The position numbers and the translations under genes were made by a program. Source: Balanoglossus misakiensis (Eukaryota > Animalia > Hemichordata). Taken from it: 64,000 bases of DNA. The stretch's first letter is position 1. Every line of letters starts with the position of its first letter. Location of the stretch: the NCBI GenBank assembly GCA_040954595.2, contig CM082580.2, forward strand, positions 2,284,783-2,348,782, given 5' to 3'. The notes beneath the pieces were generated by a model. It was not told the origin of the DNA. It saw nothing but the letters and a program-made list of their open reading frames with translations, and made no database searches. This document shows, in pieces, positions 23,406-61,656 of this stretch.

Positions 23406-23720
23406 TCTGCTGTCCCCCAGTCTATACAATCTCCCTCAATTCAGACAATAAATAACTAGAATTATAATTCCACAAAAGTTTAAACTGTATAAATATTTCA
23501 AATAGTATTACAATAACAGTCAACATCTTACCAGTCTGATCAAGTACCTATTACTTTTGATTTCCAGTAATTTTTCTCTTGCTGTCCCTCAGTTTACACA
23601 ATCTCCCCCAAGTAAGATAATAAATAACTAGAATTATAATTCCACAAAAGTTTAAACTGTATAAATATTTCAAATAGTATTACAATAACAGTCAACATCT
23701 TATCACAATATCAGTCTGAT
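23406..23720. repeat. ~170-180 bp tandem duplication
   Basis: TAAATAACTAGAATTATAATTCCACAAAAG...CAACATCTTA occurs at ~23450 and ~23620. Confidence 0.8.
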
Positions 23721-23866
23721 TGATTTGCAGTAATTTTGCTCAATTCATCTACAACAGCATGCTGAAACAGCCAGCAGTTTGTGAACACAGATTGTATACT
23801 TTTACTTTAATGAGTCATTGACAATGCCCTATCTGAAATTGTGTGTCAACAACAGAGCTAAAAAAG

Positions 23867-34344: not shown

Positions 34345-37300
34345 CTGTAATGGAAATGGAGAAAGTACCTTATATTTTCTGTAAAATAGACATTTAATTG
34401 GCAAGCCGTCCTGCATCAATTATTAATTCAGTACATGCACTGAAGCGCCCTCACAGCTGGGTGTGTTGTGTGGTCAAATCAGAGTACTTTCTGCAATTTC
34501 AAGACAGATCTTACGTGCCATTGGAGAGCTCCACTGCCTGGTCATTCATACTGTTTTCATTCATTCATTGCGGCATCAATATATTTTATCTATTCTAGCC
34601 GAGGAGCTTGGCACCTGTTGAAATGAACTCATCTGCTGTGGGCCAGTTTATTGGTGGCAGTTGAGCAGAGGAGAGCACCTTCTTTCCCGGCACGCCACCA
34701 AGTAAAGTTCCACGCCGCCCACCACAGATGCCAGCATTCATTCATGCGAGTGAGTGTAATTGCAAATTTGCCTATTCTAGATCTGTAATGGAAATGGAGA
34801 AAGTACCTTATATTTTCTGTAAAATAGACATTTAATTGGCAAGCCGTCCTGCATCAATTATTAATTCAGTACATGCACTGAAGCGCCCTCACAGCTGGGT
34901 GTGTTGTGTGGTCAAATCAGAGTACTTTCTGCAATTTCAAGACAGATCTTACGTGCCATTGGAGAGCTCCACTGCCTGGTCATTCATACTGTTTTCATTC
35001 ATTCATTGCGGCATCAATATATTTTATCTATTCTAGCCGAGGAGCTTGGCACCTGTTGAAATGAACTCATCTGCTGTGGGCCAGTTTATTGGTGGCAGTT
35101 GAGCAGAGGAGAGCACCTTCTTTCCCGGCACGCCACCAAGTAAAGTTCCACGCCGCCCACCACAGATGCCAGCATTCATTCATGCGAGTGAGTGTAATTG
35201 CAAATTTGCCTATTCTAGAATTCTTACGTGCCATTGGAGAGCTCCACTGCCTGGTCATTCATACTGTTTTCATTCATTCATTGCGGCATCAATATATTTT
35301 ATCTATTCTAGCCGAGGAGCTTGGCACCTGTTGAAATGAACTCATCTGCTGTGGGCCAGTTTATTGGTGGCAGTTGAGCAGAGGAGAGCACCTTCTTTCC
35401 CGGCACGCCACCAAGTAAAGTTCCACGCCGCCCACCACAGATGCCAGCATTCATTCATGCGAGTGAGTGTAATTGCAAATTTGCCTATTCTAGATCTGTA
35501 ATGGAAATGGAGAACGTACCTTATATTTTCTGTAAAATAGACATTTAATTGGCAAGCCGTCCTGCATCAATTATTAATTCAGTACATGCACTGAAGCGCC
35601 CTCACAGCTGGGTGTGTTGTGTGGTCAAATCAGAGTACTTTCTGCAATTTCAAGACAGATCTTACGTGCCATTGGAGAGCTCCACTGCCTGGTCATTCAT
35701 ACTGTTTTCATTCATTCATTGCGGCATCAATATATTTTATCTATTCTAGCCGAGGAGCTTGGCACCTGTTGAAATGAACTCATCTGCTGTGGGCCAGTTT
35801 ATTGGTGGCAGTTGAGCAGAGGAGAGCACCTTCTTTCCCGGCACGCCACCAAGTAAAGTTCCACGCCGCCCACCACAGATGCCAGCATTTATTCATGCGA
35901 GTGAGTGTAATTGCAAATTTGCCTATTCTAGAATTCTTACGTGCCATTGGAGAGCTCCACTGCCTGGTCATTCATACTGTTTTCATTCATTCATTGCGGC
36001 ATCAATATATTTTATCTATTCTAGCCGAGGAGCTTGGCACCTGTTGAAATGAACTCATCTGCTGTGGGCCAGTTTATTGGTGGTAGTTGAGCAGAGGAGA
36101 GCACCTTCTTTCCCGGCACGCCACCAAGTAAAGTTCCACGCCGCCCACCACAGATGCCAGCATTTATTCATGCGAGTGAGTGTAATTGCAAATTTGCCTA
36201 TTCTAGAATTCTTACGTGCCATTGGAGAGCTCCACTGCCTGGTCATTCATACTGTTTTCATTCATTCATTGCGGCATCAATATATTTTATCTATTCTAGC
36301 CGAGGAGCTTGGCACCTGTTGAAATGAACTCATCTGCTGTGGGCCAGTTTATTGGTGGCAGTTGAGCAGAGGAGAGCACCTTCTTTCCCGGCACGCCACC
36401 AAGTAAAGTTCCACGCCGCCCACCACAGATGCCAGCATTCATTCATGCGAGTGAGTGTAATTGCAAATTTGCCTATTCTAGATCTGTAATGGAAATGGAG
36501 AAAGTACCTTATATTTTCTGTAAAATAGACATTTAATTGGCAAGCCGTCCTGCATCAATTATTAATTCAGTACATGCACTGAAGCGCCCTCACAGCTGGG
36601 TGTGTTGTGTGGTCAAATCAGAGTACTTTCTGCAATTTCAAGACAGATCTTACGTGCCATTGGAGAGCTCCACTGCCTGGTCATTCATACTGTTTTCATT
36701 CATTCATTGCGGCATCAATATATTTTATCTATTCTAGCCGAGGAGCTTGGCACCTGTTGAAATGAACTCATCTGCTGTGGGCCAGTTTATTGGTGGCAGT
36801 TGAGCAGAGGAGAGCACCTTCTTTCCCGGCACGCCACCAAGTAAAGTTCCACGCCGCCCACCACAGATGCCAGCATTTATTCATGCGAGTGAGTGTAATT
36901 GCAAATTTGCCTATTCTAGAATTCTTACGTGCCATTGGAGAGCTCCACTGCCTGGTCATTCATACTGTTTTCATTCATTCATTGCGGCATCAATATATTT
37001 TATCTATTCTAGCCGAGGAGCTTGGCACCTGTTGAAATGAACTCATCTGCTGTGGGCCAGTTTATTGGTGGTAGTTGAGCAGAGGAGAGCACCTTCTTTC
37101 CCGGCACGCCACCAAGTAAAGTTCCACGCCGCCCACCACAGATGCCAGCATTTATTCATGCGAGTGAGTGTAATTGCAAATTTGCCTATTCTAGATCTGT
37201 AATGGAAATGGAGAACGTACCTTATATTTTCTGTAAAATAGACATTTAATTGGCAAGCCGTCCTGCATCAATTATTAATTCAGTACATGCACTGAAGCGC

Positions 37301-40300
37301 CCTCACAGCTGGGTGTGTTGTGTGGTCAAATCAGAGTACTTTCTGCAATTTCAAGACAGATCTTACGTGCCATTGGAGAGCTCCACTGCCTGGTCATTCA
37401 TACTGTTTTCATTCATTCATTGCGGCATCAATATATTTTATCTATTCTAGCCGAGGAGCTTGGCACCTGTTGAAATGAACTCATCTGCTGTGGGCCAGTT
37501 TATTGGTGGCAGTTGAGCAGAGGAGAGCACCTTCTTTCCCGGCACGCCACCAAGTAAAGTTCCACGCCGCCCACCACAGATGCCAGCATTTATTCATGCG
37601 AGTGAGTGTAATTGCAAATTTGCCTATTCTAGAATTCTTACGTGCCATTGGAGAGCTCCACTGCCTGGTCATTCATACTGTTTTCATTCATTCATTGCGG
37701 CATCAATATATTTTATCTATTCTAGCCGAGGAGCTTGGCACCTGTTGAAATGAACTCATCTGCTGTGGGCCAGTTTATTGGTGGTAGTTGAGCAGAGGAG
37801 AGCACCTTCTTTCCCGGCACGCCACCAAGTAAAGTTCCACGCCGCCCACCACAGATGCCAGCATTTATTCATGCGAGTGAGTGTAATTGCAAATTTGCCT
37901 ATTCTAGAATTCTTACGTGCCATTGGAGAGCTCCACTGCCTGGTCATTCATACTGTTTTCATTCATTCATTGCGGCATCAATATATTTTATCTATTCTAG
38001 CCGAGGAGCTTGGCACCTGTTGAAATGAACTCATCTGCTGTGGGCCAGTTTATTGGTGGCAGTTGAGCAGAGGAGAGCACCTTCTTTCCCGGCACGCCAC
38101 CAAGTAAAGTTCCACGCCGCCCACCACAGATGCCAGCATTCATTCATGCGAGTGAGTGTAATTGCAAATTTGCCTATTCTAGATCTGTAATGGAAATGGA
38201 GAAAGTACCTTATATTTTCTGTAAAATAGACATTTAATTGGCAAGCCGTCCTGCATCAATTATTAATTCAGTACATGCACTGAAGCGCCCTCACAGCTGG
38301 GTGTGTTGTGTGGTCAAATCAGAGTACTTTCTGCAATTTCAAGACAGATCTTACGTGCCATTGGAGAGCTCCACTGCCTGGTCATTCATACTGTTTTCAT
38401 TCATTCATTGCGGCATCAATATATTTTATCTATTCTAGCCGAGGAGCTTGGCACCTGTTGAAATGAACTCATCTGCTGTGGGCCAGTTTATTGGTGGCAG
38501 TTGAGCAGAGGAGAGCACCTTCTTTCCCGGCACGCCACCAAGTAAAGTTCCACGCCGCCCACCACAGATGCCAGCATTTATTCATGCGAGTGAGTGTAAT
38601 TGCAAATTTGCCTATTCTAGAATTCTTACGTGCCATTGGAGAGCTCCACTGCCTGGTCATTCATACTGTTTTCATTCATTCATTGCGGCATCAATATATT
38701 TTATCTATTCTAGCCGAGGAGCTTGGCACCTGTTGAAATGAACTCATCTGCTGTGGGCCAGTTTATTGGTGGTAGTTGAGCAGAGGAGAGCACCTTCTTT
38801 CCCGGCACGCCACCAAGTAAAGTTCCACGCCGCCCACCACAGATGCCAGCATTTATTCATGCGAGTGAGTGTAATTGCAAATTTGCCTATTCTAGAATTC
38901 TTACGTGCCATTGGAGAGCTCCACTGCCTGGTCATTCATACTGTTTTCATTCATTCATTGCGGCATCAATATATTTTATCTATTCTAGCCGAGGAGCTTG
39001 GCACCTGTTGAAATGAACTCATCTGCTGTGGGCCAGTTTATTGGTGGCAGTTGAGCAGAGGAGAGCACCTTCTTTCCCGGCACGCCACCAAGTAAAGTTC
39101 CATGCCGCCCACCACAGATGCCAGCATTCATTCATGCGAGTGAGTGTAATTGCAAATTTGCCTATTCTAGATCTGTAATGGAAATGGAGAAAGTACCTTA
39201 TATTTTCTGTAAAATAGACATTTAATTGGCAAGCCGTCCTGCATCAATTATTAATTCAGTACATGCACTGAAGCGCCCTCACAGCTGGGTGTGTTGTGTG
39301 GTCAAATCAGAGTACTTTCTGCAATTTCAAGACAGATCTTACGTGCCATTGGAGAGCTCCACTGCCTGGTCATTCATACTGTTTTCATTCATTCATTGCG
39401 GCATCAATATATTTTATCTATTCTAGCCGAGGAGCTTGGCACCTGTTGAAATGAACTCATCTGCTGTGGGCCAGTTTATTGGTGGCAGTTGAGCAGAGGA
39501 GAGCACCTTCTTTCCCGGCACGCCACCAAGTAAAGTTCCACGCCGCCCACCACAGATGCCAGCATTCATTCATGCGAGTGAGTGTAATTGCAAATTTGCC
39601 TATTCTAGAATTCTTACGTGCCATTGGAGAGCTCCACTGCCTGGTCATTCATACTGTTTTCATTCATTCATTGCGGCATCAATATATTTTATCTATTCTA
39701 GCCGAGGAGCTTGGCACCTGTTGAAATGAACTCATCTGCTGTGGGCCAGTTTATTGGTGGCAGTTGAGCAGAGGAGAGCACCTTCTTTCCCGGCACGCCA
39801 CCAAGTAAAGTTCCACGCCGCCCACCACAGATGCCAGCATTCATTCATGCGAGTGAGTGTAATTGCAAATTTGCCTATTCTAGATCTGTAATGGAAATGG
39901 AGAAAGTACCTTATATTTTCTGTAAAATAGACATTTAATTGGCAAGCCGTCCTGCATCAATTATTAATTCAGTACATGCACTGAAGCGCCCTCACAGCTG
40001 GGTGTGTTGTGTGGTCAAATCAGAGTACTTTCTGCAATTTCAAGACAGATCTTACGTGCCATTGGAGAGCTCCACTGCCTGGTCATTCATACTGTTTTCA
40101 TTCATTCATTGCGGCATCAATATATTTTATCTATTCTAGCCGAGGAGCTTGGCACCTGTTGAAATGAACTCATCTGCTGTGGGCCAGTTTATTGGTGGCA
40201 GTTGAGCAGAGGAGAGCACCTTCTTTCCCGGCACGCCACCAAGTAAAGTTCAACGCCGCCCACCACAGATGCCAGCATTTATTCATGCGAGTGAGTGTAA

Positions 40301-42772
40301 TTGCAAATTTGCCTATTCTAGAATTCTTACGTGCCATTGGAGAGCTCCACTGCCTGGTCATTCATACTGTTTTCATTCATTCATTGCGGCATCAATATAT
40401 TTTATCTATTCTAGCCGAGGAGCTTGGCACCTGTTGAAATGAACTCATCTGCTGTGGGCCAGTTTATTGGTGGTAGTTGAGCAGAGGAGAGCACCTTCTT
40501 TCCCGGCACGCCACCAAGTAAAGTTCCACGCCGCCCACCACAGATGCCAGCATTTATTCATGCGAGTGAGTGTAATTGCAAATTTGCCTATTCTAGAATT
40601 CTTACGTGCCATTGGAGAGCTCCACTGCCTGGTCATTCATACTGTTTTCATTCATTCATTGCGGCATCAATATATTTTATCTATTCTAGCCGAGGAGCTT
40701 GGCACCTGTTGAAATGAACTCATCTGCTGTGGGCCAGTTTATTGGTGGCAGTTGAGCAGAGGAGAGCACCTTCTTTCCCGGCACGCCACCAAGTAAAGTT
40801 CCACGCCGCCCACCACAGATGCCAGCATTCATTCATGCGAGTGAGTGTAATTGCAAATTTGCCTATTCTAGAATACTTACGTGCCATTGGAGAGCTCCAC
40901 TGCCTGGTCATTCATACTGTTTTCATTCATTCATTGCGGCATCAATATATTTTATCTATTCTAGCCGAGGAGCTTGGCACCTGTTGAAATGAACTCATCT
41001 GCTGTGGGCCAGTTTATTGGTGGCAGTTGAGCAGAGGAGAGCACCTTCTTTCCCGGCACGCCACCAAGTAAAGTTCCACGCCGCCCACCACAGATGCCAG
41101 CATTCATTCATGCGAGTGAGTGTAATTGCAAATTTGCCTATTCTAGAATTCTTACGTGCCATTGGAGAGCTCCACTGCCTGGTCATTCATACTGTTTTCA
41201 TTCATTCATTGCGGCATCAATATATTTTATCTATTCTAGCCGAGGAGCTTGGCACCTGTTGAAATGAACTCATCTGCTGTGGGCCAGTTTATTGGTGGCA
41301 GTTGAGCAGAGGAGAGCACCTTCTTTCCCGGCACGCCACCAAGTAAAGTTCCACGCCGCCCACCACAGATGCCAGCATTCATTCATGCGAGTGAGTGTAA
41401 TTGCAAATTTGCCTATTCTAGATCTGTAATGGAAATGGAGAAAGTACCTTATATTTTCTGTAAAATAGACATTTAATTGGCAAGCCGTCCTGCATCAATT
41501 ATTAATTCAGTACATGCACTGAAGCGCCCTCACAGCTGGGTGTGTTGTGTGGTCAAATCAGAGTACTTTCTGCAATTTCAAGACAGATCTTACGTGCCAT
41601 TGGAGAGCTCCACTGCCTGGTCATTCATACTGTTTTCATTCATTCATTGCGGCATCAATATATTTTATCTATTCTAGCCGAGGAGCTTGGCACCTGTTGA
41701 AATGAACTCATCTGCTGTGGGCCAGTTTATTGGTGGCAGTTGAGCAGAGGAGAGCACCTTCTTTCCCGGCGCGCCACCAAGTAAAGTTCCACGCCGCCCA
41801 CCACAGATGCCAGCATTCATTCATGCGAGTGAGTGTAATTGCAAATTTGCCTATTCTAGATCTGTAATGGAAATGGAGAAAGTACCTTATATTTTCTGTA
41901 AAATAGACATTTAATTGGCAAGCCGTCCTGCATCAATTATTAATTCAGTACATGCACTGAAGCGCCCTCACGGCTGGGTGTGTTGTGTGGTCAAATCAGA
42001 GTACTTTCTGCAATTTCAAGACAGATCTTACGTGCCATTGGAGAGCTCCACTGCCTGGTCATTCATACTGTTTTCATTCATTCATTGCGGCATCAATATA
42101 TTTTATCTATTCTAGCCGAGGAGCTTGGCACCTGTTGAAATGAACTCATCTGCTGTGGGCCAGTTTATTGGTGGCAGTTGAGCAGAGGAGAGCACCTTCT
42201 TTCCCGGCACGCCACCAAGTAAAGTTCCACGCCGCCCACCACAGATGCCAGCATTTATTCATGCCAGTGAGTGTAATTGCAAATTTGCCTATTCTAGAAT
42301 TCTTACGTGCCATTGGAGAGCTCCATTGCCTGGTCATTCATACTGTTTTCATTCATTCATTGCGGCATCAATATATTTTATCTATTCTAGCCGAGGAGCT
42401 TGGCACCTGTTGAAATGAACTCATCTGCTGTGGGCCAGTTTATTGGTGGCAGTTGAGCAGAGGAGAGCACCTTCTTTCCCGGCACGACACCAAGTAAAGT
42501 TCCACGCCGCCCACCACAGATGCCAGCATTCATTCATGCGAGTGAGTGTAATTGCAAATTTGCCTATTCTTACGTGCCATTGGAGAGCTCCATTGCCTGG
42601 TCATTCATACTGTTTTCATTCATTCATTGCGGCATCAATATATTTTATCTATTCTAGCCGAAGAGCTTGGCACCTGTTGAAATGAACTCATCTGCTGTGG
42701 GCCAGTTTATTGGTGGCAGTTGAGCAGAGGAGAGCACCTTCTTTTCCGGCACGCCACCAAGTAAAGTTCCAC
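34345..42772 (+). repeat. Left terminal array: 10 x 163-bp A module interspersed with ~25 x 275-bp B unit
   Basis: A-to-A spacings are 438, 713, 988, 713, 988, 988, 713, 1538 and 438, i.e. 163+275n with n=1,2,3,2,3,3,2,5,1. Units are nearly identical. Confidence 0.95.
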
Positions 42773-44554
42773 GTGCATTCCTGGCCCTGGTTTTATTTAT
42801 GTTTACAGACAATATTGCACTTTTGTACAAGTATTTTAATCAACTATAAATTTTGAATGTGTCATTTACCTGAACCGGTCATGTTGACCAGAATGATACA
42901 TTTCTGCCTTCACTCACCCTATAAATATGTGATTGAGACATAGGTCATTTGCATAAGCTAACATACCAGAAAGTAAGCATATCTGATGTTTTCCCTGTGT
43001 CACTGCCATCAAAGTAAAAATTAGACGTTGTGTAGAGCAAACTCCAATTTTTTGTTCTCAATAAACATGGATGAATTACATAGAATGTGTTTGTTGTTTA
43101 CAGTCTTTAGATTATGCACTTTACAAAACGTTTCTGAGAAACAAGTGACTAACTAGTTTCTTTCCACTGTGGCCAACGTGGTTCACTGTTTGTGTCAGAA
43201 TCTCTCTGTTTTGCAAGGATTTTGAAATCTTAGTGGTGACATGCATAGTGAAAATCAGCTACTTTCAAATGTCCGTCATGTTCATGCTGTAATTGAATTT
43301 TCAAAGCTGGGCTGGCGTGTTTTTTCTTATTTACATAAGTATCACACTTTATACATGTATCTTCATGGGGTTTTCTGAGTCCCGTATTTAGGTCCTCTCT
43401 CACAATTTTACGAAATATCGTATAACTGACAGTTGTTCTTCCCAGAAGAGATTGGTTGGTTATGAACTTTCGGTGTAACTGCGATATACTGTGGTCCGGC
43501 GCCAGGTACGGTTTAATTCGAGGATTCCTGCAGTTGTGAGATTCTACAATTCTGTGCCTGCGTACGTGTTCAGTGATATCAGTCAGCAAATTTGGATTGA
43601 GTTTCCGACGATGCCTTTTGTGTCGGCCCCTTGCATCCGGCATCAGACCAGTAATGTTCCATGTGCATTCCTGGCCCTGGTTTTATTTATGTTTACAGAC
43701 AATATTGCATTTTTGTACAAGTATTTTAATCAACTATAAATTTTGAATGTGTCATTTACCTGAACCGGTCATGTTGACCAGAATGATACATTTCTGCCTT
43801 CACTCACCCTATAAATATGTGATTGAGACATAGGTCATTTGCATAAGCTAACATACCAGAAAGTAAGCATATCTGTTGTTTTCCCTGTGTCACTGCCATC
43901 AAAGTAAAAATTAGACGTTGTGTAGAGCAAACTCCAATTTTTTTGTTCTCAATAAACATGGATGAATTACATAGAATGTGTTTGTTGTTTACAGTCTTTA
44001 AATGACACATTAGATTATGCACTTTACAAAACGTTTCTGAGAAACAAGTGACTAACTAGTTTCTTTCCACTGTGGCCAACGTGGTTCACTGTTTGTGTCA
44101 GAATCTCTCTGTTTTGCAAGGATTTTGAAATCATAGTGGTGACATGCGTAGTGAAAATCAGCTACTTTCAAATGTCCGTCATGTTCATGCTGTAATTGAA
44201 TTTTCAAAGCTGGGCTGGCGTGTTTTTTCTTATTTACATAAGTATCACACTTTATACATGTATCTTCATGGGGTTTTCTGAGTCCCGTATTGAGGTCCTC
44301 TCTCACAATTTTACGAAATATCGTATAACTGACAGTTGTTCTTCCCAGAAGAGATTGGTTGGTTATGAACTCTCGGTGTAACTGCGATATACTGTGGTCC
44401 GGCGCCAGGTACGGTTTAAATCGAGGATTCCTGCAGTAGTGAGATTCTACAATTCTGTGCCTGCGTACGTGTTCAGTGATATCAGTCAGCAAATTTGGAT
44501 TGAGTTTCCGGCGATGCCCTTTGTGTCGGCCCCTTGCATCCGGCATCAGACCAG
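42773..44554. repeat. ~890-bp tandem duplication covering the 3' part and 3' flank of the Sola-like N-half gene
   Basis: GTGCATTCCTGGCCCTGG starts copies at 42773 and 43663. ORF 43230-43643 is a truncated copy of part of 44052-44843. Confidence 0.9.
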
Positions 44555-45281
44555 TTGAACAGTGCATCATTTTGCTTAGAACGGTTCTAGTCCGCCTCTC
44601 ACTAATGCCAAATAATTTCAGGAATGCATTTTTGCAGACAGTAACCGTTTCACCGCCTTCATTCACCAGGTGATAACGAACCGATTTCTTGTGTGACTTC
44701 ATCTGTATATCCATCAGTTTGTAGAGCATCAAGTTCTGTTCATTATACACGCGACCATCAAAATATTTTCTCGTGGTGCCTAAAACATGCGTACTCCCAA
44801 GCTTCCGCAGACAATAAGCGCGTTTCCAGTTCCAGATACCCATGACGCTTTGCGCGAGGTCACGGGGTCAAAAGGTAAAACTTTAGGTCAGCGTAGCAGA
44901 CGACATATTGTAAACAAACGTTGCGAGGCGAATTTTTTTGCGAATCTCAGTGAAACGAACTTTTGAGGTGAGTTTTTACATTGAATAACAAATTTAGTGT
45001 GCCATTCAAGGCATTTCGAGTCGAATCTCGCATTGTCACTCGAATTTTTGGCGACTTTCATAACTTTTTGCCGACGTGTATTTCCTTAGGCCTGAACGGA
45101 AACACCAATACGTACGGCCGTGAATAGCTAGGCACGTAATCGGTTCGTGTGGTGTTATATAGCAGACATGTAATTATGTTGACGACCGACCAATGCAGGC
45201 ATAAAACATTGCATAGACATAGACTATATAGGTATTTCTTTTTTTACCAGATTCTCGTGTGAGTGAATAGGAAGTTTAGGG

Positions 45282-46976
45282 ATGCCCACCTGTTCCTGTG
45301 CAGTGCATGGGTGCACTAATAATACCCATAAAATAAGACAATGGAGGAGGCAGTATTGCCAAATACACCACTGTCAATTCGACACAGGTAGATGTTTTTG
45401 TGACCCACCATTTACGCTATTCCCTTTCCCAAACAAAGAAAGCAATACAGAGGTGTTGAAAGAGTGGATTAGACTGATCAACCTTAAAGATGCTACTACA
45501 GGAAAGATTTGGGAACCAAACACATACAGTCGAGTTTGTTCACAGCACTTTGTTGACAGCAAACCCACCCAAGAAAACCCAAATCCAACTCTACACCTAG
45601 GTTATCCTGTAAAACTAAAGCAAACAAGGCGAAAAATAGAGAGGTCCACGTGTTGTTCCGCAGTTCCAAAGAAAAGGAAAACAGTTGAAAGGCCAGTAGA
45701 GAGAGAACACAATCCAAATTCAAGCAACCCTTCAAGTTCATCTGTTTTGTCCACTGAGGAATCACCAAAAAAAGATGAGAACGCTAGTGAAATATTAGTT
45801 GACTGTGAACACAAAAATGCTGCAGACACTTCATCATCAAGTGGAAATTCTTCACATCTAGATGACCACTCTTACTTTAGATCTTGTGACTGTAGTCAAG
45901 ATTGTAATTGTTTGGGGTGTCATGAAAAAAATGAGACAATCAAGGATTTGCTAAATAAAATTCAAGACCTTGAAGAATTGATTAGAATGAAAAAGTCAGT
46001 TGAGCAAAAAATCAGTGAAAATGGAAAACATATGTTTGAAAAATTATTGAAAGATGATTCGAAATGTAAATTTTACACAGGTCTACCAAGCATTGCTCTT
46101 TTCAATTTAATTTTTGATTACATTGATCCGAAAACCAGGAAAATGAGATATTGGTATGGTGTGAAAAATATTATAAGCACAAAAGTCCCAAGGAAGTTTA
46201 ATAAATCACCCAAAAAGTTTGGTCCCCAAAGAAAACTGGGTGGAAAGGATGAAATGCTTCTTGTCCTTATGAAGTTGAGATTGGGTCTTTTAAATAAAGA
46301 CCTGGCTGATCGTTTCAACATTTCACCTGCACATGCGAGTAGAATTTTCAATACATGGGTCAAAGTTCTCTCTAAAGAGTTGAAACAAATGATACGTTAT
46401 CAACCTAAAGAGTATGTTTTGCCAAACCTTCCAAAGTGTTTTCAGAAACATTTTCCCAGACTCGTCAGCATATTAGATTGCACGGAAATATTTATTGAGA
46501 GGCCTAGGGACTTGAAGCTGCAAGCTCAAACCTGGTCAGATTATAAGAAGCATAACACAGCCAAATTGCTGGTTTCTTGTTCACCAAGGGGGTCAATTAG
46601 TTTTATTTCTGGAGCCTGGGGTGGGAGAACTTCCGATAATTATATTGTGAGGAATTCTGGGTTTTTGGATTTTGTTGAACAAGGCGATCAGCATTTGGCT
46701 GATAAAGGTTTCACATTGAAACAAGATTTTTTGATCAGGGGGGCAAAACTTATAATACCACCTGGGGTAAGGGGGAAAGAACAACAAACTGAAAGTGAGG
46801 TTAAAATGACGAAAAAAATTGCAAATTTGAGAATACACGTGGAAAGGGCTATCAACAGGTTTAAACATTTTAGGATTTTACAAAATACTTACCCAATTTC
46901 TTTGATACCAGTAATAGATGATGTCATCACTGTATGTGCTGCATTATGTAATTTTTTACCACCATTAGTGCGATAA
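45282..46976 (+). CDS. THAP domain + HTH + DDE_Tnp_4 transposase (564 aa, intact)
   Basis: CAVHGC..FPFP..W..RVCSQHF..P.PTL (THAP); KFYTGL; LMKLRLGL..KDLADRFNIS; ILDCTEIFIERP; WGGRTSD; LADKGF; RIHVERAI. Confidence 0.92.
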   Translation: MPTCSCAVHGCTNNTHKIRQWRRQYCQIHHCQFDTGRCFCDPPFTLFPFPNKESNTEVLKEWIRLINLKDATTGKIWEPNTYSRVCSQHFVDSKPTQENPNPTLHLGYPVKLKQTRRKIERSTCCSAVPKKRKTVERPVEREHNPNSSNPSSSSVLSTEESPKKDENASEILVDCEHKNAADTSSSSGNSSHLDDHSYFRSCDCSQDCNCLGCHEKNETIKDLLNKIQDLEELIRMKKSVEQKISENGKHMFEKLLKDDSKCKFYTGLPSIALFNLIFDYIDPKTRKMRYWYGVKNIISTKVPRKFNKSPKKFGPQRKLGGKDEMLLVLMKLRLGLLNKDLADRFNISPAHASRIFNTWVKVLSKELKQMIRYQPKEYVLPNLPKCFQKHFPRLVSILDCTEIFIERPRDLKLQAQTWSDYKKHNTAKLLVSCSPRGSISFISGAWGGRTSDNYIVRNSGFLDFVEQGDQHLADKGFTLKQDFLIRGAKLIIPPGVRGKEQQTESEVKMTKKIANLRIHVERAINRFKHFRILQNTYPISLIPVIDDVITVCAALCNFLPPLVR

Positions 46977-47316
46977 AGTTTTTTTTATATGAAAATAAAA
47001 GATGTACGTTACTGCAGCTCTGGGTTATGTAAGTTATTTCCCCTGTTTAGTTGAAGACTACTCAAAGAAATCCCAGCAGAAGGCGGTCTGCCTATCCATA
47101 CGTTCTCTACACTGGGTTGTTGGGCATATAACTACGAGAAGTATTTCATTCGATATTATGCATATTTTAAGGATGGAGATTAAACATTGTCATTGTGGAA
47201 TGAAAAGTCAAAAACATACTGTCAAATTAACATGATTTTATTAAGTTTTACACACTTAAAATATTAAAATACATAAATGATGTATCATTTTGCAGAGGAA
47301 TCATGGATATATATAA

Positions 47317-50088
47317 TCATAATTCCACAGCAGAGGCTGTCCATTTGCAGGTGTGGGACTTAATTTCATTCAATAAATGGTGATTGTAGAAATATGCCAG
47401 ATTTTTTACAATTTTTTTCCAATAATCATGGTCAAATGTTATCCTTTCTAAGTGGTATCCATGCATAGAATAAACAAAAAAATCACACCACTTTTTTTCA
47501 GCAATTGCCATTTGACCTTGAACCTGGCTATAATATGAAGAAGTATGTTTGAGTTTTGTTACACCATTAGCAGATGTTAGGTAAATTAAATTGGTATGAC
47601 TTGGTACTGAATCTGATACTGATATAGGACATTTGCATTCCAACAGACCAATACCACAACAGTCACATTTGACTATTGCATCAGGGCTTGCTCCCAGAAA
47701 TATATTGTTTTTATCAACAAATAGACCACATTCAAAGAGATGGATATTTTTGTGACCATTTCCTTTCATAATTTTCAAATAGTTACTTTTAGCCACTGAC
47801 TCCATACGTCTCCCAAACTTGAGTGACCCAATGTTTGGATTGGGAGAAACACATCCAAGTAGCCTACAAGATAAGGACTTTGTCTCGATTGATTTTGGAT
47901 TTTCGGCCATCTGAATTGTGTTCACTTTAGTGTACACAGAGTGAAAATTAGATGCAGTTATACGCCCTTTTCTGTTTTCAATCCAAATCTCATTTTCACT
48001 TTGCCCAATTGTACTATTTTCAATAGCTGACACTGTTTCATTACTGTACTTTGGTAAATCACAAATATCAGTAATATCTGAGAAACTTAACAAGTCATGA
48101 AGTGTAGGGGGCAATGGTGCTGGAAAATTACCAACAGATGACTGGCTCAAATTGTCAAAAGAAGTGTCTCTCTCTGTAGATGTTTCAGAAAATATGACAG
48201 AACCTGGAGATACAACTTTAGCATTTTCAAGGAAAGTTTGAAATGTCATCCCCTTGTCTTTATTCCTCTTGTGTGGCACAAACAATGACTTCACAGCAGG
48301 ATTAATGGTGCTTGTGTGATCTGAAAAAATAATATCAAATACATATTCATGTATTGACCAATAATATTAAATGAAGTGGTCAAGTAGCACCAACTCTTGG
48401 ACACAATGTTCTTCAGTTCACTACAAACTAATTTTATATTCCGGCGTTTCATGGGCTTAATCCCACTTCATCAGGTTGAAATTGTATGGAAGCCAAAGTA
48501 TATACCGGTATGTATAGGATACCCCCCCCCCCACCCCACCCCACACACATACATACATACAACACATACAGGAAAGTAAGAACAAGACTTGGTTGCACAG
48601 CATTTCACACCATACTTTTTCTTACATCAGCTGTTCATTAGGTTTTGTAAAGGACTTCAAATTAATTTAGGTGAATATTACATGGTAATATGCCATTGAT
48701 GGCAACAGAGATACTACAGATTGCAATTTAAAGGTATACAATCACCTCCAATTTACATCACTCATGTATGGCTGAAATTGCGTATTAGAGCCTTCTAAAG
48801 AACATATGGTGGCGCTCTTGTTTTCGCGTGTGCCACCTAATGAAAATTTGTGATTGGCTAGATCTCATTTTGCCATGGTAACTATAGCTTATTTTCCATA
48901 GGTGACCGTATACCTTTAATGTTTTCAGAAATTATCTAAATAAGATTGGTGTACCAGATTTATCAGCATGTGGGGATTTCCATTCCATTTCTTTTATTGG
49001 TACTGGTTGAACAAGAAGAGTTTTACCAGATCCTCTCCATGTACAGGGTAGAGATGTCTGTGACTTGACCACATAACCATACTTCCAACAGAAGTCAATT
49101 TTCAAAAGTACTGCTGCCACATGATTGCATGATTTACCATATCTGTACAATACAATACAAAGCAAAGAGAGAGCATTCGTTAAATATTAAACTACTTTGG
49201 TTGGTTAATTTGAGAACTTTGAGCCAAATATGTGGCATAAAGAGAAATATTGAAGACATAATAAAATTATTCAGACTAATATTAACAATATATGAATAAA
49301 AATAAGTTATTGTGCAGTTTTTATACTTGAGTTAGTATAAATTATTTATCAGAGTCACTTAATTTTTATTGAGACTAGTAAGTAGAATTTAAAATGTCAA
49401 AATGCTGATATAACAGCATAGGTCAGTGAAAAAATATAGTTTTTCCCATTAAAAAAACATGTAAAGGTACTCACCCAGCTACACAAGTACAATGTGAACT
49501 TTTAATCACTCCCGTCTCTTTCTCAATAGCAACCCACAGTTCATGGGCACAATCTGCCAGTCTTTGTGATGGTGTACATTTGGATTTCAGGAAACAGTAT
49601 GGACTATCTTCGGAGATGTGGTGGTAATAAACCTCAAAAAGAAACTGTGAGGAGAAATAACTAAATGCCTTGCCCTCTTTGTAATCATTTAACAGCCTTT
49701 TCGATAAATTGGTCTTGCTGATATCAGTCTCATGTTCCTGCAAGTAATTTTGGATATCCGTTATCATAGTTGGGGGCCACATATGCATTGCTGTATTTTC
49801 ATTTTGCCATCCAGACGTCAAAGAGGTGAATGGATCTGGCAAAACACAGCCATCAGAAATGACCAATGCCATTTTATATTCTCTTTGGCGCGTTTCCTCC
49901 TTCTCTATGGCTGTTGTAACCAAAGGTGTCTTGTTTATATGTGCTGCATATGCTAGTGCCACCAACTCTTCTTTTCTCCCAGAAACAGGCAGATCTCTTT
50001 TCTGAAGAAATGCTTTGAGAGCTGGCACCTTCCATAATTTAAATGTGTCATACGTTAGCTCAGCCTCATGAATACTCTGAGATGACAT
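47317..50088 (-). CDS. SAP + SWIM Zn finger + YqaJ (lambda exonuclease-like) accessory protein
   Basis: Exons 50088-49475, 49142-48955 and 48320-47317. WKVPALKAFL..R.LPVSGRKEELV (SAP); CTCVAG-YGKSCNHVAAVL (SWIM); GRITASNF, LGASPD, LECKCP, YYSQVQGQM (YqaJ). Confidence 0.88.
48732..48915. mobile_element. TTAA-flanked MITE (Kolobok-like) in an intron of the YqaJ gene
   Basis: TTAA|AGGTATACAATCACCT...AGGTGACCGTATACCT|TTAA. Confidence 0.7.
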
Positions 50089-51011
50089 TTTTCTACAAGA
50101 GATAAATTAAAAATGTAGTTATAGTCACACTGTCAACAATACCTGGTGTTCATATAGAATATAAAATAAAGAAGCGTTTTTTTTCAAAATAGGTACAATC
50201 ACTCATGATTATCATGAAAATATTAATAAATCAAGCACTACCGCTGTCATTACATTTAAAGTTTCCGGTAGAATAAACGAGCCTTGACCATGATGACCTC
50301 ACGGTTTTGTACTGTAGTCGTGTACGTGCCTAGCTATTCACGGCCGTACGTATTGGTGTTTCCGTTCAGGCCTAAGGAAATACACGTCGGCAAAAAGTTA
50401 TGAAAGTCGCCAAAAATTCGAGTGACAATGCGAGATTCGACTCGAAATGCCTTGAATGGCACACTAAATTTGTTATTCAATGTAAAAACTCACCTCAAAA
50501 GTTCGTTTTCACTGAGATTCGCAAAAAATTCGCCTCGCAACGTTTGTTTACAATATGTCGTCTGCTACGCTGACCTAAAGTTTTACCTTTTGACCCCGTG
50601 ACCTCGCGCAAAGCGTCATGGGTATCTGGAACTGGAAACGCGCTTATTCCCTTGAACGCAGGCGCATTCCAAGGAAAGACTGTCAATATCTTGAAAAGGG
50701 CGATTTTTCCTTGGTTTTTGTCTCGGACACGTCTTTTTAGAATTCCTACGTGGCTTGTTGGCTCGAGCTGACAGTTCGGTTCTGCGTTGCTGCCACACAG
50801 GAATGGGTTCCCACGCATAAGCAACTCCCCGGCAGGCCATGGTCACAGCTGAAGTATTTGTTCAAGTACTGACTGACTAAACGCGGCATGGAACAAACGA
50901 ACGAACGAACGAACGACTTCACGTTCGGAAAAAAAAATCGTTGCGAGCTGTTGGGTGCCTCTATAGTTGTCGGCAACCGTTCTTTTTTATTGCTAACAAT
51001 GCTGTCAGAGC

Positions 51012-52026
51012 ATGGAAGGTGTGGTGGAAAACGAACAGAGGTTTTGTACGACCAACGATTGGATGGTGCTACATATGGACTTCCACAAGTCATTGCCGGT
51101 TCCTAAACTCAGCTCTGAAGACTTTTACTTTAAATCGAAATTGCAAATGAAGCTCCTTGGAATTTACAACGGGACAACGGAAAAGATGCATTGTTATGTA
51201 TGGACAGAGCTCGATAGCAGAAAGTCTCCCGATGAAGTTATTACCTGTCTAAATCACTTTTTTTTATAACTCGGGTGTGACCAGCAGACATGCAGTTATT
51301 TACAGCGACAACTGCCGTGCCGAATTCAAGTGTGGGAAGTTAATGTTTTACTATGACTATCTGTTACGAAAGGGCGTGTTTCGACGAATTGACTATAAAA
51401 CTCTTGTGGCTGGACACACGTACTCCACCTGTGACCGAGTTTTTGCGTCCATTGAAAGACATGCAAGTCGTTTCCAGAGTATAGAGACACCTCACGATTG
51501 GATATCTGTGATTCGAGGATCTTCTCTGAATGGGAACATTGGAGTTACGGAGATGACTCACAGAGACTTTTTCAATTATTCTGATTTCCTGAAAAATGAG
51601 TACGTTGTGCGTTATGCAGATACAAACAATGTAACTTTTTACTACCAAGCCATGCACTATTTTAATTTTGGAGAAGGAGAAAGGCTTGATACCGACGGCA
51701 ACCTCAGAACATTTAGTCATGCAGATAAAGTTTGGGTGAGAACATCTCTAGATCCAAGCGAGACCCCGATTGTAGTTGACTTTAGAAAGAAGAAGCAGAA
51801 CCGGCGTTTACAAGATTGTACGCTGAACAAACTTTATCAGGAACGTCGACCACTGGCGAGCAAAGTTTGGCGGGATCTTCAGAGTTTAGCCAAAAATTAC
51901 CTGTCTCCGGAGGCAATAGAATTTTATAGGAATCTACCGCTTCAGGAGAGTAGTGGCACCTCTGCAGACCCGTACGCCTTTCATGATGATGACGACGACG
52001 ATGATGATGATATGGGCGGTGGTTGA
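51012..52026 (+). CDS. Sola1-like transposase C-terminal catalytic (DDD) half; single +1 frameshift in a T8 run
   Basis: MDFHKSLPVP, FYFKSKL, CYVWTE, IYSDNC, LVAGHTYSTCDRVFASIER, P.DW..VI, K..DL. Removing one T at 51258-51265 fuses ORFs 51012-51269 and 51277-52026. Confidence 0.8.
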
Positions 52027-52522: not shown

Positions 52523-53848
52523 ATGGCTAGCTGGCGCAGGAAGAGACAAGGCAATGTGCGGTCTGTAATCAACGAACGGCACCGCTCAGTTCAGTGTCCC
52601 TTTCTTCAAAAGTGGATCGGTGAGCAATTGGTATTTTCAGGTCGTTCAGAGGATGAAGTCCAGTCCAGTACTGTATTTGAGAGCTACAAATGTTGGGTTG
52701 AAAACTATTCGTCGGCGGACAATCAAGTAATGATTATGGTTACTAAAGCTCGATTTTTCAAGGTGAGAATGATCGCATTTTTCTTTCCCCCCCCCTCCCT
52801 CCCCCAAGGGACTCGTTTTCTGTCTCTTTTAAACCTGTAACTTAACGAAAAGGAAGTTTTTCACATATCTCTTCGTTGACACTATAGCAATTTGGAGCGC
52901 GGATGCTTCAAGAGAATAGCGTTACCAAATCAAAGTCGGCCGGGGTTAATATTTATAGAGGTGTTCGTCTGAAAGCTGGTTCGCGAAGAATCTCAACGGG
53001 GAAACCTGAGCACAGTGTACTTCAGACCAGGGCAAGGGCATTTCTTGATGACGCCAGCGTGACCGTTCCGATCGAGGTAAGAATGGTGTTTTGTTTGGAC
53101 TAGGACAATAGAACGTTGCAATGAGTGTGTCAATGGGTGTCCAAGTGCAAACGTGGTCTGCTTCTGTCCACAAATGCCATTAATTTTTGGCAGGATTTAT
53201 AAAATTGTCAATGACGAATACAAAAATGAAAAACAACAGTTAATAGCAAACTGGTAGGATTGCAAGGGCTTGTAAAACGGTACACACTGTACCAGGAAGT
53301 TTGCAACACTAATGAAGAATGTATATGATATATTTAGGTGAGAACTGTTCGCGATCGCCGGGACGCAGGACGGTGCGCGTTTTCGACGAGGGATATTCAA
53401 GCCTGGGACGTCGTCTGCGAATACCGGGGCACGGTTATTAGCGTTGAAGAAGCTAGTCGGCGTGATGAGCTTTACAGGGCAGAGGGGAAACGACCACGCA
53501 TGTTCCATCTCTACATTGGAAAGAGACACGTTGTGTGAGTGTATCACTTAGTCGAATATATGGTCATATATTGCAAAGCATCTGTCGAAATAGAAAACGT
53601 AATATTGTCTATATTTTCCTCATTAACGCAGCATTGACGGATACGATGTCCCAGCCGGTGAAGAAAATTTAGCAGGCCTAATAAATCACAGTCAGCAGAA
53701 CGCCAACTTGGTACCGGTTCGGATCGGAGAGCGCCTGGTTTTCTTTGCAACCAGGAATCTTTGTCAGGGAGTAGAGCTTTTGTATGATTACGGTGACGGG
53801 GGTGAAGAGGATTTCTTCAGTGGTTCTCAAACTTTTCCTGAAAATTAA
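52523..53848 (+). CDS. Winged-helix-like domain fused to a SET domain (SET8/PR-Set7-like lysine methyltransferase)
   Basis: In-frame exons 52523-52762, 52888-53076, 53338-53534 and 53632-53848. SET motifs GRCAFSTRDI, VCEYRG, IDG, LINHS..NAN, FATRNL..G.ELLYDYG. N-terminal W...VFESYK.W...F.K....IYRGVRLK resembles RFX/D5-type winged helix. Confidence 0.78.
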
Positions 53849-54752: not shown

Positions 54753-55118
54753 ATGGCGGCCAAGCTCAACTGCATATCAGATAATGCCAAGGAGCGTTTG
54801 AGAGGCATCCTCGCCAGAAGGAGTCGCGTTTCCGGTGACTGTGTGCTCTGGACGGGTGCAGCTTGTCGAAACGGCTATGGCTCTATTACGTTCAAAGATG
54901 AGAACACTCTAACCGCCTATGTCCATCACATTGCACTCCTAATTAACGGAGTGCAATTGGTGGGCAGGCGGTTAGAGTGTTCTCATCTTTGCAACGAAAA
55001 GCTATGCATCCGCCCAGAGCACATTGTCCAGGAAACGCGACTCCTAAACATTTCACGAAAGACGTGCTTTAAATCCCCAAAAGGGGAGTGTCACCACGAT
55101 CCCAGGTGCCTAAGGTGA
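54753..55118 (+). CDS. His-Me finger (His-Cys box, I-PpoI-like zinc-binding loop) endonuclease
   Basis: CVLWTG..RNGYG.I..YVHH.A..LECSHLCNEKLCIRPEHI..E..N..R..C....CHHDPRC. Confidence 0.85.
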   Translation: MAAKLNCISDNAKERLRGILARRSRVSGDCVLWTGAACRNGYGSITFKDENTLTAYVHHIALLINGVQLVGRRLECSHLCNEKLCIRPEHIVQETRLLNISRKTCFKSPKGECHHDPRCLR

Positions 55119-55959
55119 GTAATCCTCTTCTCATTTGATATGTATTGTGTGACCCTGCAGTTGAAACGCTTTCATCAATAATTTGCGGCGCGTGGGTAAT
55201 CTCGGTGTTATTGACAATGCGAGATTTTATACATAAGGAACAATCTAGATTTATTTTAGAAGACACTGTTCTTTTAAAACAGCTAGCATAATACAGCTAA
55301 ATTTCGGAATTTCCGGACAATTTTCGGAATTCCTTTTAAATTTGACAAATTTTTCATCAGATATAAGTGTTACTATTTATTGGACATGTTTTTATCATTG
55401 TTTACTTTTTAAGGTCATTCTCACCCCCCCCCCCAAAAAAAAAGCCGCTTTAGGCTTCATGTTCAGTAAACAATCTGGAAAGTTCAGCTGAATTTTACAC
55501 TGATCACATATTTTTGGGAAGGTCTGGCGCAAAATAAAGGATGACCAATGTAAATCTAATGTCACATTTGTAAACCTCTAAGTATTGTACACCCATTCTA
55601 TTAAGTATATGCAAATGGTACGGATAATTTTTTCGGAATGTGGAATTCCGAAATTAGTTCGGAACGTGTTAGCTGTGAAGAGATCACCACTGAGGGTTGG
55701 AAGGCCTTGCCAGAAATTAACGCGTAAAGTACGCCCTCACAGGCCATGTAAACAAGGTCAAATAAGACCGTCTGGCAAACGAATGACGCGCCATTTGAGC
55801 CGAGCTGAGTTGGTCTGAGTTGCGTATCACACAGACTTAGGCTGAATGTCAGTGGAGTAACCAGTCCGTTTTAGATTTACCAATGATGTGAATTTAATTT
55901 CTTCACCCAGAAAAACAGAACACAACTTGTCTGCAACATGATGCTGACTGTGACACATG

Positions 55960-56830
55960 ACAGAGAAGTGGATCCGCGTTGTCAACACAGATGCCAGCAT
56001 TCAAAAGGGGAGTGCCACCTGCTGAAATCAACTCATCTGCTGTGGGCCTGTTTATCTGTGGCAACTGTTCAGAGGAGACAACGTTTATTCCGTGCAAGCC
56101 AACACCGATGCAAGCATTCATGTGAGTGAGTATCAGTACTGACCTTGTATTTGCTGAATAATTCATAATGCCTATTTTAGAATTCTTAGAGGCATTTGGA
56201 GAGTTCATTGCCTGGACAACCAAACTACACCCCTTAACAGCTGAAACAAAATGCGTATTGTGTTCATTCATTCATTGCATCAATATATATAGGCAACATG
56301 AGTATCAAGTAGCACTATTTGTTTACGATTGTATTCATGAAAACTTCCCACTAACAATTCCACAGTACTTCGTTAATATTGAACACATTTATCCAACAAG
56401 GTCAAAAGAAAAAGGGAATCTTCTGGTTCCAAAATACGCCACAAATGTGGGTCAACATACAGTGAAATATTATGGTGCTCAAATATGCAACATATCAAAT
56501 CTGTCTCATCAAAGTCATGCTTTAAAAAAGAATTGAAAAAGTATTATTTATCCATTTGACTGCTGTATTTTCAGAAGGAAAACAAACTGAATTTGGTTTT
56601 TCATGTACAAACTCGCATTAGTATCGCCCTGTATTAAATTCTGCAATTGTATGTTGTGTGGGGGACTGGACTCGACTAGTGTTACACAATTTTCTAGTCC
56701 CCTCCCATCTTATACCTATTGTATTCGTCATTCCTTTGTTAATTTTGTTTATTTGTGTCAGAATAAGGGAAATAAACATATTATTATTATTATTATTATA
56801 TTTTGTGTATTCCTAGCACTGGCCAATAAG
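55960..56830 (+). repeat. Diverged B-like unit interrupted by a LINE 3' fragment (~56290-56798)
   Basis: Shares CACAGATGCCAGCATTC, CTCATCTGCTGTGGGCC, TAGAATTCTT and TTCATTCATTCATTGC with B. The insert reads ..HIYPTRSK...YYGAQICN.. and ends AATAAA + (ATT)n. Confidence 0.65.
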
Positions 56831-58870
56831 CTTGGCACCTGTTGAAATGAACTCATCTGCTGTGGGCCAGTTTATTGGTGGCAGTTGAGCAGAGGAGAGC
56901 ACCTTCTTTCCCGGCACGCCACCAAGTAAAGTTCCACGCCGCCCACCACAGATGCCAGCATTCATTCATGCGAGTGAGTGTAATTGCAAATTTGCCTATT
57001 CTAGAATTCTTACGTGCCATTGGAGAGCTCCACTGCCTGGTCATTCATACTGTTTTCATTCATTCATTGCGGCATCAATATATTTTATCTATTCTAGCCG
57101 AGGAGCTTGGCACCTGTTGAAATGAACTCATCTGCTGTGGGCCAGTTTATTGGTGGCAGTTGAGCAGAGGAGAGCACCTTCTTTCCCGGCACGCCACCAA
57201 GTAAAGTTCCACGCCGCCCACCACAGATGCCAGCATTCATTCATGCGAGTGAGTGTAATTGCAAATTTGCCTATTCTAGATCTGTAATGGAAATGGAGAA
57301 AGTACCTTATATTTTCTGTAAAATAGACATTTAATTGGCAAGCCGTCCTGCATCAATTATTAATTCAGTACATGCACTGAAGCGCCCTCACAGCTGGGTG
57401 TGTTGTGTGGTCAAATCAGAGTACTTTCTGCAATTTCAAGACAGATCTTACGTGCCATTGGAGAGCTCCACTGCCTGGTCATTCATACTGTTTTCATTCA
57501 TTCATTGCGGCATCAATATATTTTATCTATTCTAGCCGAGGAGCTTGGCACCTGTTGAAATGAACTCATCTGCTGTGGGCCAGTTTATTGGTGGCAGTTG
57601 AGCAGAGGAGAGCACCTTCTTTCCCGGCACGCCACCAAGTAAAGTTCCATGCCGCCCACCACAGATGCCAGCATTCATTCATGCGAGTGAGTGTAATTGC
57701 AAATTTGCCTATTCTAGAATTCTTACGTGCCATTGGAGAGCTCCACTGCCTGGTCATTCATACTGTTTTCATTCATTCATTGCGGCATCAATATATTTTA
57801 TCTATTCTAGCCGAGGAGCTTGGCACCTGTTGAAATGAACTCATCTGCTGTGGGCCAGTTTATTGGTGGCAGTTGAGCAGAGGAGAGCACCTTCTTTCCC
57901 GGCACGCCACCAAGTAAAGTTCCACGCCGCCCACCACAGATGCCAGCATTCATTCATGCGAGTGAGTGTAATTGCAAATTTGCCTATTCTAGATCTGTAA
58001 TGGAAATGGAGAAAGTACCTTATATTTTCTGTAAAATAGACATTTAATTGGCAAGCCGTCCTGCATCAATTATTAATTCAGTACATGCACTGAAGCGCCC
58101 TCACAGCTGGGTGTGTTGTGTGGTCAAATCAGAGTACTTTCTGCAATTTCAAGACAGATCTTACGTGCCATTGGAGAGCTCCACTGCCTGGTCATTCATA
58201 CTGTTTTCATTCATTCATTGCGGCATCAATATATTTTATCTATTCTAGCCGAGGAGCTTGGCACCTGTTGAAATGAACTCATCTGCTGTGGGCCAGTTTA
58301 TTGGTGGCAGTTGAGCAGAGGAGAGCACCTTCTTTCCCGGCACGCCACCAAGTAAAGTTCCATGCCGCCCACCACAGATGCCAGCATTCATTCATGCGAG
58401 TGAGTGTAATTGCAAATTTGCCTATTCTAGAATTCTTACGTGCCATTGGAGAGCTCCACTGCCTGGTCATTCATACTGTTTTCATTCATTCATTGCGGCA
58501 TCAATATATTTTATCTATTCTAGCCGAGGAGCTTGGCACCTGTTGAAATGAACTCATCTGCTGTGGGCCAGTTTATTGGTGGCAGTTGAGCAGAGGAGAG
58601 CACCTTCTTTCCCGGCACGCCACCAAGTAAAGTTCCACGCCGCCCACCACAGATGCCAGCATTCATTCATGCGAGTGAGTGTAATTGCAAATTTGCCTAT
58701 TCTAGATCTGTAATGGAAATGGAGAAAGTACCTTATATTTTCTGTAAAATAGACATTTAATTGGCAAGCCGTCCTGCATCAATTATTAATTCAGTACATG
58801 CACTGAAGCGCCCTCACAGCTGGGTGTGTTGTGTGGTCAAATCAGAGTACTTTCTGCAATTTCAAGACAG
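56829..58870 (+). repeat. Right terminal array (B-B-A-B-B-A-B-B-A), same orientation as the left array
   Basis: A modules at 57282, 57995 and 58708 (713-bp spacing). The last A ends at 58870, abutting (AT)n. Confidence 0.95.
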
Positions 58871-60217: not shown

Positions 60218-60645
60218 ATAATAATAATAATAATAATAATAATATTTAATTCTTAAAAAACGCTTTCCATGTAAAAAGACATCCAAAAGCGCTGTACATC
60301 GCTGCTTAAAAAGACAAAGACAAGTAAAATGCTAAAAATGTATAATAACAAAAAATAGACAATGGTTAAAAATGGATAAAAAAGTCATTCCCTGAATAAA
60401 AACGTTTTAAGGCTGGATTTAAAAACATTAAAATTCTCACTGCTACGGAGTGGAACCGGTAGCTTATTCCACAACCGTGGTGCTCCTGTAGAGAATGACC
60501 TGTCACCATAAAAGACTGTGTTAACTTTGGGATGATCAAGAATAAAAGAACAATCAGTTGTAGAACGAAGGTTACGGACAGAAGAACGAACACTTATGAG
60601 CTCCTTCAGGTACGACGGAGCCATATTATTTAAAACTTTAAAACT
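60218..60645 (-). mobile_element. 5'-truncated L2/CR1-type LINE 3' end
   Basis: APSYLKELI..RNLRS..GDRSFS..APRLWNKLP..FKSSLKTFLF followed by a (TTA)n tail. Confidence 0.85.
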
Positions 60646-61656
60646 TTTTATTCACGCTCTACACAGCACCACTAGAGGATATTATAGTAGGCCATAATCT
60701 TGACTACATGATGTACGCTGATGACACACAGATGTACATTATCTGCAATAAACCTGAAGATGTTAGCGCCGGCGTTAAAATGTGCGTTGATGATATTCGC
60801 GGATGGATGAGAAGTAACATGCTGGTGCTCAACGATAACAAGACCGAAGTTATTCATTTTTCATCACGCTTGAAACACGATATGGCAGAACTGCATAACC
60901 TCAGGATCGGTAAACTTAACATCACTTCATCTCCTTTCGTTCGGAATCTTGGTGTTATTCTCAACAGGGATGGCTTTATGTGTGAACATATCAGTCAACT
61001 TTGTAGGAACGCATATTTCTCTTTATCAAGAATCGGTAAAATTCGTAAATTACTCGACAAGCCCACTACCGAGAAACTCATTCATGCATTCGTTACCTCT
61101 AGACTCGACTATTGTAACAGTCTGTTCTATGGCATCTCAAATGACCAGCTGATCCGTCTGCAGTCTGTTCAAAATGCAGCAGCCCGTCTCGTCACAGGTA
61201 CACGCAAATATGACCACATCACCCCTGTTTTTATTGATTTACACTGGTTACCTGTGAAAGCTCGTATACAATTCAAAATTTTATTGACTACTTTTAAGAT
61301 TGTTAGAGGTGGTGCACCGCTTTATCTGACCGATTTAATTGATCTGTACGTACCGTCAAGAAATCTGCGATCTTCTGAGAAATTACGTTTAACTCCTCCT
61401 CGCGGATATTTTAATAAGTCCTATGGTCAGAGAGCTTTTTCGGTATGTGCCCCTTTGCTGTGGAATGCACTGCCTTCAGAAATTCGTTGTGCCAGAAATA
61501 CTACTTCTTTTAAACGTTGTTTGAAGACCCATCTTTTTAACAAGTTTTACTCGTAACTGCAGTAGTTGTTTTTTGTATCTTTTTAATACTTGTGTTCAGC
61601 GCACTGAGACGTTTGTGGAGTGCGTTTTTAAGAATTAAATATTATTATTATTATTA
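60646..61656 (+). mobile_element. 5'-truncated L2/CR1-type LINE (RT C-terminal part)
   Basis: YADDTQ, LNDNKTE, VRNLGV, SRLDYCNS, LHWLPV, LWNALP, LKTHLF and a (TTA)n tail. Confidence 0.92.

Follow-up and report, generated by a model that had tools for sequence, protein, structure and literature searches.

With a probability that we put at about 0.8, the window, the whole stretch of 64,000 nucleotides of Balanoglossus misakiensis DNA analysed here, contains a broken copy from a lineage of DNA transposons in which two genes on opposite strands encode the Sola-like transposase between them and in which the two proteins likely form one enzyme, of which the front one is predicted to bind the ends of the element and the rear one to cut and join DNA. 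The split itself is inherited and is not a local flip. The element occupies positions 34345-58870 (24.5 kb) and is flanked by TA runs. An earlier reading made from the letters of the window alone (the sequence-only reading) had confined it to 44052..52026, leaving out two further genes, the terminal arrays and a frameshift. The same reading had recognized a minus-strand N-terminal half with its own stop, a plus-strand catalytic half of ~335 aa and divergent start codons with (AACG)n between them; how far these claims hold is apparent from the structure of the two genes.

The front-half gene starts at the ATG at 50840 on the minus strand. Its 5' part (50646..50840) is separated from its 3' part (44052..44813) by an insert of 5830 bp that interrupts the window copy at 50646, and the 3' part carries the VC, RGxH, SHY and DTCxxCD motifs, the final helix and the gene's own stop codon (44052-44054). 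Once the insert is skipped, a frame of 318 aa is open, in agreement with the sequence-only reading, and the joint 44813->50646 is read through in contigs of the same organism, in which the insert-free gene is present together with its stop and 3' flank; in run X1 the depth is 753 at this joint versus 170 for the insert body. A tandem duplicate (97%) of the 3' part and its 3' flank lies at 42756..43652 on the minus strand, and it likely belongs to the family, because contig depth over it is about twofold. The catalytic-half gene (51012..52026, plus strand) carries the residues D23, D99 and D141 of a DUF7869 protein. Its frame is closed in the window copy, in which an extra T in the run at ~51258-51266 shifts the frame by +1 after residue 83; the extra T is missing from the contigs listed for runs X1 and X2, for which the length proposed earlier stands and which encode an open catalytic half of 337 aa. 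The window copy is broken in both genes and the common form is open. The three sequencing runs derive from one sample, which may be the window's own source, and run X3, which covers only the nested insert, was left out of the evidence. Contig depth does not equal copy number; several copies of the element are presumably present in the organism. The ATG at 50840 (minus) and the ATG at 51012 (plus) diverge as described before, with 171 bp between them (50841..51011) that include the AACG repeat and may act as a bidirectional promoter, and each gene has a start and a stop of its own and is followed by a poly(A)-like signal.

The nested insert (44816-50645) is bounded by inverted repeats of ~323 bp and by an AT duplication (44814-15 and 50646-47) in an AATT target. 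Its first gene (45282..46976, plus strand), the frame of which is open, encodes a transposase with THAP, HTH_Tnp_4 and DDE_Tnp_4 domains, and its second gene (47317..50106, minus strand, several exons) encodes SAP and YqaJ domains. The AT duplication in AATT and the combination of a THAP-HTH-DDE gene with a YqaJ gene are those given for ISL2EU in passages of PMC4482050; the insert differs in the length of its repeats, which is 6-259 bp in the same passages, and in their AAG start, and it is named ISL2EU-type because those passages describe a GG start only as usual. Elsewhere in the window, we observed a Harbinger-type element at 21918-24730, with a frameshifted DDE_Tnp_4 gene on the plus strand and a second frame on the minus strand at 23867-24730, a LINE reverse-transcriptase fragment (RVT_1) at 60642-61556, and host genes for a fibrinogen-domain protein (14117-16621) and a sulfotransferase-domain protein (27227-28371).

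The two halves are complementary, as had been claimed: the front half aligns to the N-terminal parts of fused relatives of 450-1482 aa (best E 7e-24) and the catalytic half to their C-terminal parts, with no overlap between the two. As a single-sequence query the front half gave no match; the later profile search matched 151 proteins. Among the 120 of these that were listed, 97 contain DxCxxC, 76 of the 97 end 60-79 aa past the motif, and none is matched by the catalytic profile. One match is a named Acropora millepora protein, and by its placement in the Atlas the front half falls among unnamed eukaryotic clusters. The catalytic half, too, has short proteins as its closest relatives, one of them a Saccoglossus kowalevskii RefSeq protein, and another cluster of short catalytic proteins includes Porites proteins; 17 of the 18 that were inspected start 9-26 aa ahead of the first Asp, the ends of these and of the front-half proteins being automatic gene calls that may reflect contig ends or alternative starts. 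The Asp triad is found at D11 (26/28), D90 (29/31) and D132 (35/35) of the split alignment and at D402 (48/49), D478 (50/50) and D520 (50/50) of the fused one, and the split-type catalytic halves share an insertion, NFGxGE... No relatives were found in the viral contigs searched.

No solved structure was found among the sequence relatives of the catalytic half. Modelled alone, it reached a pTM of 0.88, and the first 165 residues of the model match integrase and mariner cores (Z 8-9, rmsd 3-3.7); 41 residues separate the second and third Asp, and the predicted model has no insertion domain. In the model of a fused relative, P0077 (mean pLDDT 82), a helix at 360-392 is followed by a loop at 393-395 and by the first catalytic strand at 396-403, and the end and the start of the split genes coincide with this loop. 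From these models, the split point is predicted to fall in a domain linker, the loop that connects the last front helix to strand 1 of the RNase H fold.

A scan run with the alignment from the coral side yielded 24 related loci, likely of coral origin judging from named close relatives. The front half is head-to-head with the catalytic half in eight of them (L001, L002, L004, L011, L023 and L024, with remnants in L014 and L016), tail-to-tail in three (L008, L009 and L015), fused to it in one distant locus (L022) and not seen in twelve; no separate front half on the same strand occurs in any of the 24. The opposite-strand layout, the recurrence of which the sequence-only reading had proposed as a check, is found in 11 of the 24 loci, several of which are near-copies, so that they represent about two head-to-head and about two tail-to-tail families besides the window. 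Several of the twelve loci without a front half are short, whereas two of them, L003 and L007, depart from sister loci with which they are nearly identical. The cut point is the same in many families. Three side observations concern individual loci: in L022 (675-5625), the fused DUF7869 gene lies on an AT-rich contig next to a 704-aa frame without a Pfam match; L002 contains a STING homologue (6093-7145) 3 kb downstream of the intact split pair; and L023 and L024, which are animal-type transposon contigs filed under a bacterial MAG, are likely host contigs contaminating that MAG.

Split and fused proteins are separated in two trees, both of which were quick searches with midpoint roots, run without bootstrap on chosen subsets of the matches. 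In the catalytic tree, 23 short halves including the window's form one group against 30 fused proteins (SH-aLRT 99), and in the front-half tree one branch separates 21 front halves from 16 fused proteins (SH-aLRT 99), the window's front half being a long branch flagged by the program. L001 with L023 (head-to-head) and L008 with L009 (tail-to-tail) show the same grouping in both trees, and the window's catalytic half groups with the hemichordate protein and not with the coral ones. The 24th short catalytic protein, P0008, which has an N-terminal PHD finger, falls just outside the split group, support being 72 if it is included; it may represent a second split, a fusion with cargo or one exon of a fused gene. 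Purifying selection acts on both halves: dN/dS, a second check proposed earlier, is 0.12-0.23 in the 5 of 21 pairs in which it could be measured, dS being saturated in the remaining 16. Both proteins were therefore needed, and this does not imply host domestication. The proposal of the sequence-only reading that one gene evolved by fission into two finds good support in the relatives, the trees, the purifying selection and the place where the cut is predicted to lie.

An inherited split need not mean a single enzyme. The front protein could be a separate end-binding regulator or scaffold, while the catalytic protein acts through DNA-bridged contacts or with another partner, and some of the coral pairs may be host-domesticated. 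L001-L004, which are 99% identical, lie near the STING gene and show no terminal repeats, have the pattern of a fixed host locus, and in L003 and L007 the catalytic gene is open and has no front half linked to it. We nevertheless regard this reading as unlikely, since the halves remain linked, share their end and start point and group alike in both trees, and since many of the front-half clusters contain from dozens up to hundreds of members, which fits mobile families better than single genes.

Lower still is the probability that trans-splicing joins the opposite-strand genes into one mRNA and so restores an ordinary single-chain transposase. In the window, an acceptor-like site directly precedes the catalytic ATG; it is composed of a T-rich tract and of the CTAAC and CAG that the sequence-only reading noted. 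The halves are also exactly complementary. Against this possibility, which that reading had kept open, the ends of seven front-half genes have no donor-like site at a shared position, and nine related loci have no shared acceptor before the catalytic ATG and all have an in-frame ATG at the same position; of the 8 genes that were checked, 7 show a poly(A)-like signal past the stop, and the acceptor-like site of the window could serve an intron in the 5' UTR or a spliced leader. A one-off inversion or assembly flip of a collinear gene, named earlier as the refuting case, is extremely improbable: this copy is broken in both genes and none of the 24 contig pieces listed (6225 more exist) spans the 20 bp at 50936-50956, where the pieces stop without overhang, but opposite-strand layouts recur in distant relatives with open frames, the contigs contain a front half with a stop of its own, and no strand-switching joint at 50936-50956 or at the gene ends is among the joints listed (6 more exist).

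The lineage probably goes back to a single ancestral fission. In the most probable mechanism, both genes would be transcribed away from the short shared region between their starts and co-expressed, the front protein would bind the ends of the element, and the catalytic protein would dock onto the front protein through the helix just ahead of the split point. Each of the two layouts, head-to-head and tail-to-tail, is a circular permutation of the other; both would result if the element passed through tandem or circular forms, and also from two inversions. Unequal crossover may enlarge the terminal arrays, perhaps with help from the His-Me nuclease in the manner proposed for KolobokP.

The left terminal array (34345..42773, plus strand) starts directly after the TA run and comprises 10 copies of a 163-bp unit and, interspersed among them, 25 starts of a ~273-bp mini-internal unit. 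The right array (56819..58870, plus strand) comprises 3 copies and 5 starts, respectively, and ends with a 163-bp unit that is followed by an AT run. Both arrays have the same orientation (13 units of 163 bp and 30 starts of ~273 bp in total), and the 163-bp unit is outermost on each side, the outermost left one (34345..34507, plus strand; CTGT...ACAG) being the left end of the element. Its inverted ends are imperfect, with 19 of 24 terminal bases complementary, a value equalled in none of 20000 shuffles. The ~273-bp piece matches both ends of the long internal region. At 17 junctions without a 163-bp unit (one with a change), the sequence is AGAA/TTCT, as opposed to AGAT/unit/ATCT elsewhere, and the two inner bases are the complement of those beside the 163-bp unit; these junctions represent either the footprint of an excision or an AWWT site in common. 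Known hairpin-forming enzymes carry an insertion domain. Hairpin excision was kept only as a lead for these junctions, given that the predicted model has no such domain, that a single event may have been copied to give all the junctions and that AATT could equally be a shared AWWT site. Degenerate copies of the mini-internal motif (81-85%) were also observed inside the right side of the element at 55900-56800, followed by a sequence that resembles the 3' terminus of a LINE, including a (TTA)n tail. L023 and L024 have arrays near the front gene with a ~160-bp unit that has inverted ends, and their larger array unit has its own inverted ends of 16-19 bp; the ~160-bp and 163-bp units have no similarity to each other (score 39, shuffled mean 39), and the match in array architecture is suggestive only.

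Two further genes lie between the transposase and the right array, and in run X1 both have the same contig depth as the transposase genes. The SET-domain gene (52523..53848, plus strand) consists of four exons with three predicted GT-AG introns and has an open frame of 280 aa. The gene is likely an old cargo, because 7 of the 24 loci (L001-L005, L012 and L013, from two families) carry homologous SET sequence in linkage with the catalytic gene. Exons 1-2 (52523-53076) end in a ...NIYRGVRLK stretch, which presumably resembles an RFX-type winged helix; a Pfam search with separate pieces of the gene gave no match to such a domain. The His-Me finger (I-PpoI-like) nuclease gene (54753..55118, plus strand) is intact and encodes 121 aa that match PF05551 (E 1e-12), with I-PpoI as the best PDB match (E 0.0035); it was found in none of the 24 related loci.

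The single-chain DUF7869 (PF25273) transposases, which we take to be Sola1, share with the split pair the Pfam family, the order of motifs over both halves and the three invariant Asp. For Sola1, a DDD triad was reportedly described by Bao et al. in 2009; this triad, the RNase H fold and the terminal inverted repeats are features in common with the window element. The Sola1 transposase of 630 aa and the 4-bp AWWT target duplication are documented in passages of PMC3845634, and the ATAT that flanks the window element on both sides fits this preference, although it represents one insertion, sits within the TA run and would fit a 2-bp AT duplication equally well. No definition of Sola1 motifs was found in passages of 10.1101/2021.09.26.461848, PMC5751038 and PMC4455052. 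The label Sola1 that had been given to the enzyme is plausible. Fused DUF7869/Sola1 proteins are encoded in a single frame of ~600-900 aa, whereas the window element has two opposite-strand genes, the NFGxGE... insertion, SET and His-Me cargo and terminal arrays; because of the two opposite-strand genes in place of one frame, we consider it a Sola-like variant and not a plain member of Sola1.

The layout of the arrays has a parallel in KolobokP (Kojima and Bao 2022), for which passages of PMC9587614 describe terminal direct repeats with their own inverted ends that form multimers; the window element, with 13 copies of its 163-bp unit, also contains a His-Me (I-PpoI-like) nuclease gene. It differs from KolobokP, according to these passages, in the repeat (163 bp with CT..AG termini against ~450 or 660 bp with RR..YY termini), in the transposase (by its motifs a split DUF7869 DDD enzyme against a DDE enzyme with a C/DxxH signature), in the additional SET gene and in the composition of the arrays, most units of which are the 273-bp mini-internal piece. 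PIF/Harbinger and the other PHIS elements also have two genes, one catalytic and one DNA-binding, but in passages of PMC4482050 the second gene encodes an unrelated Myb/SANT or YqaJ protein, whereas here both genes are halves of one ancestral transposase.

Transposases that consist of more than one polypeptide are also known from RAG1/RAG2, ProtoRAG (the genes of which are tail-to-tail), IS3 OrfA/OrfB and Tn7 TnsA/TnsB. RAG2 is an unrelated subunit that was added, the frames of IS3 lie on the same strand and become fused through frameshifting, and TnsA and TnsB are unrelated nucleases; to our knowledge, none of the RAG, IS3 and Tn7 systems is a fission onto opposite strands. The eukaryotic cut-and-paste transposases that we know of are single chains joining end-binding and catalytic domains. 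In the literature searched, outside Repbase Reports and the original Sola paper, no split Sola transposase was found, and a prior record is possible. At somewhat less than even odds, we tentatively propose that the element belongs to an undescribed, actively spreading animal transposon lineage that combines an obligate two-subunit transposase made by fission, an ancestral SET methyltransferase gene and a design of terminal repeats and homing endonuclease independent of KolobokP, with tandem or circular intermediates explaining both the arrays and the switch in gene order.

The element offers a second lineage for testing the KolobokP model, in which the homing endonuclease drives the growth of multimers and which, according to passages of PMC13565253, awaits confirmation. 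In annotation pipelines, the two genes would be entered as uncharacterised proteins with no relation to each other, as is the case for the entries from Saccoglossus and Acropora. A natural and long-lived split shows that the chain link between end-binding and catalytic domains is dispensable; it offers a test of how the enzyme ties recognition of the ends to cutting, and it points to a transposase in which the targeting part could be exchanged or put under separate control.
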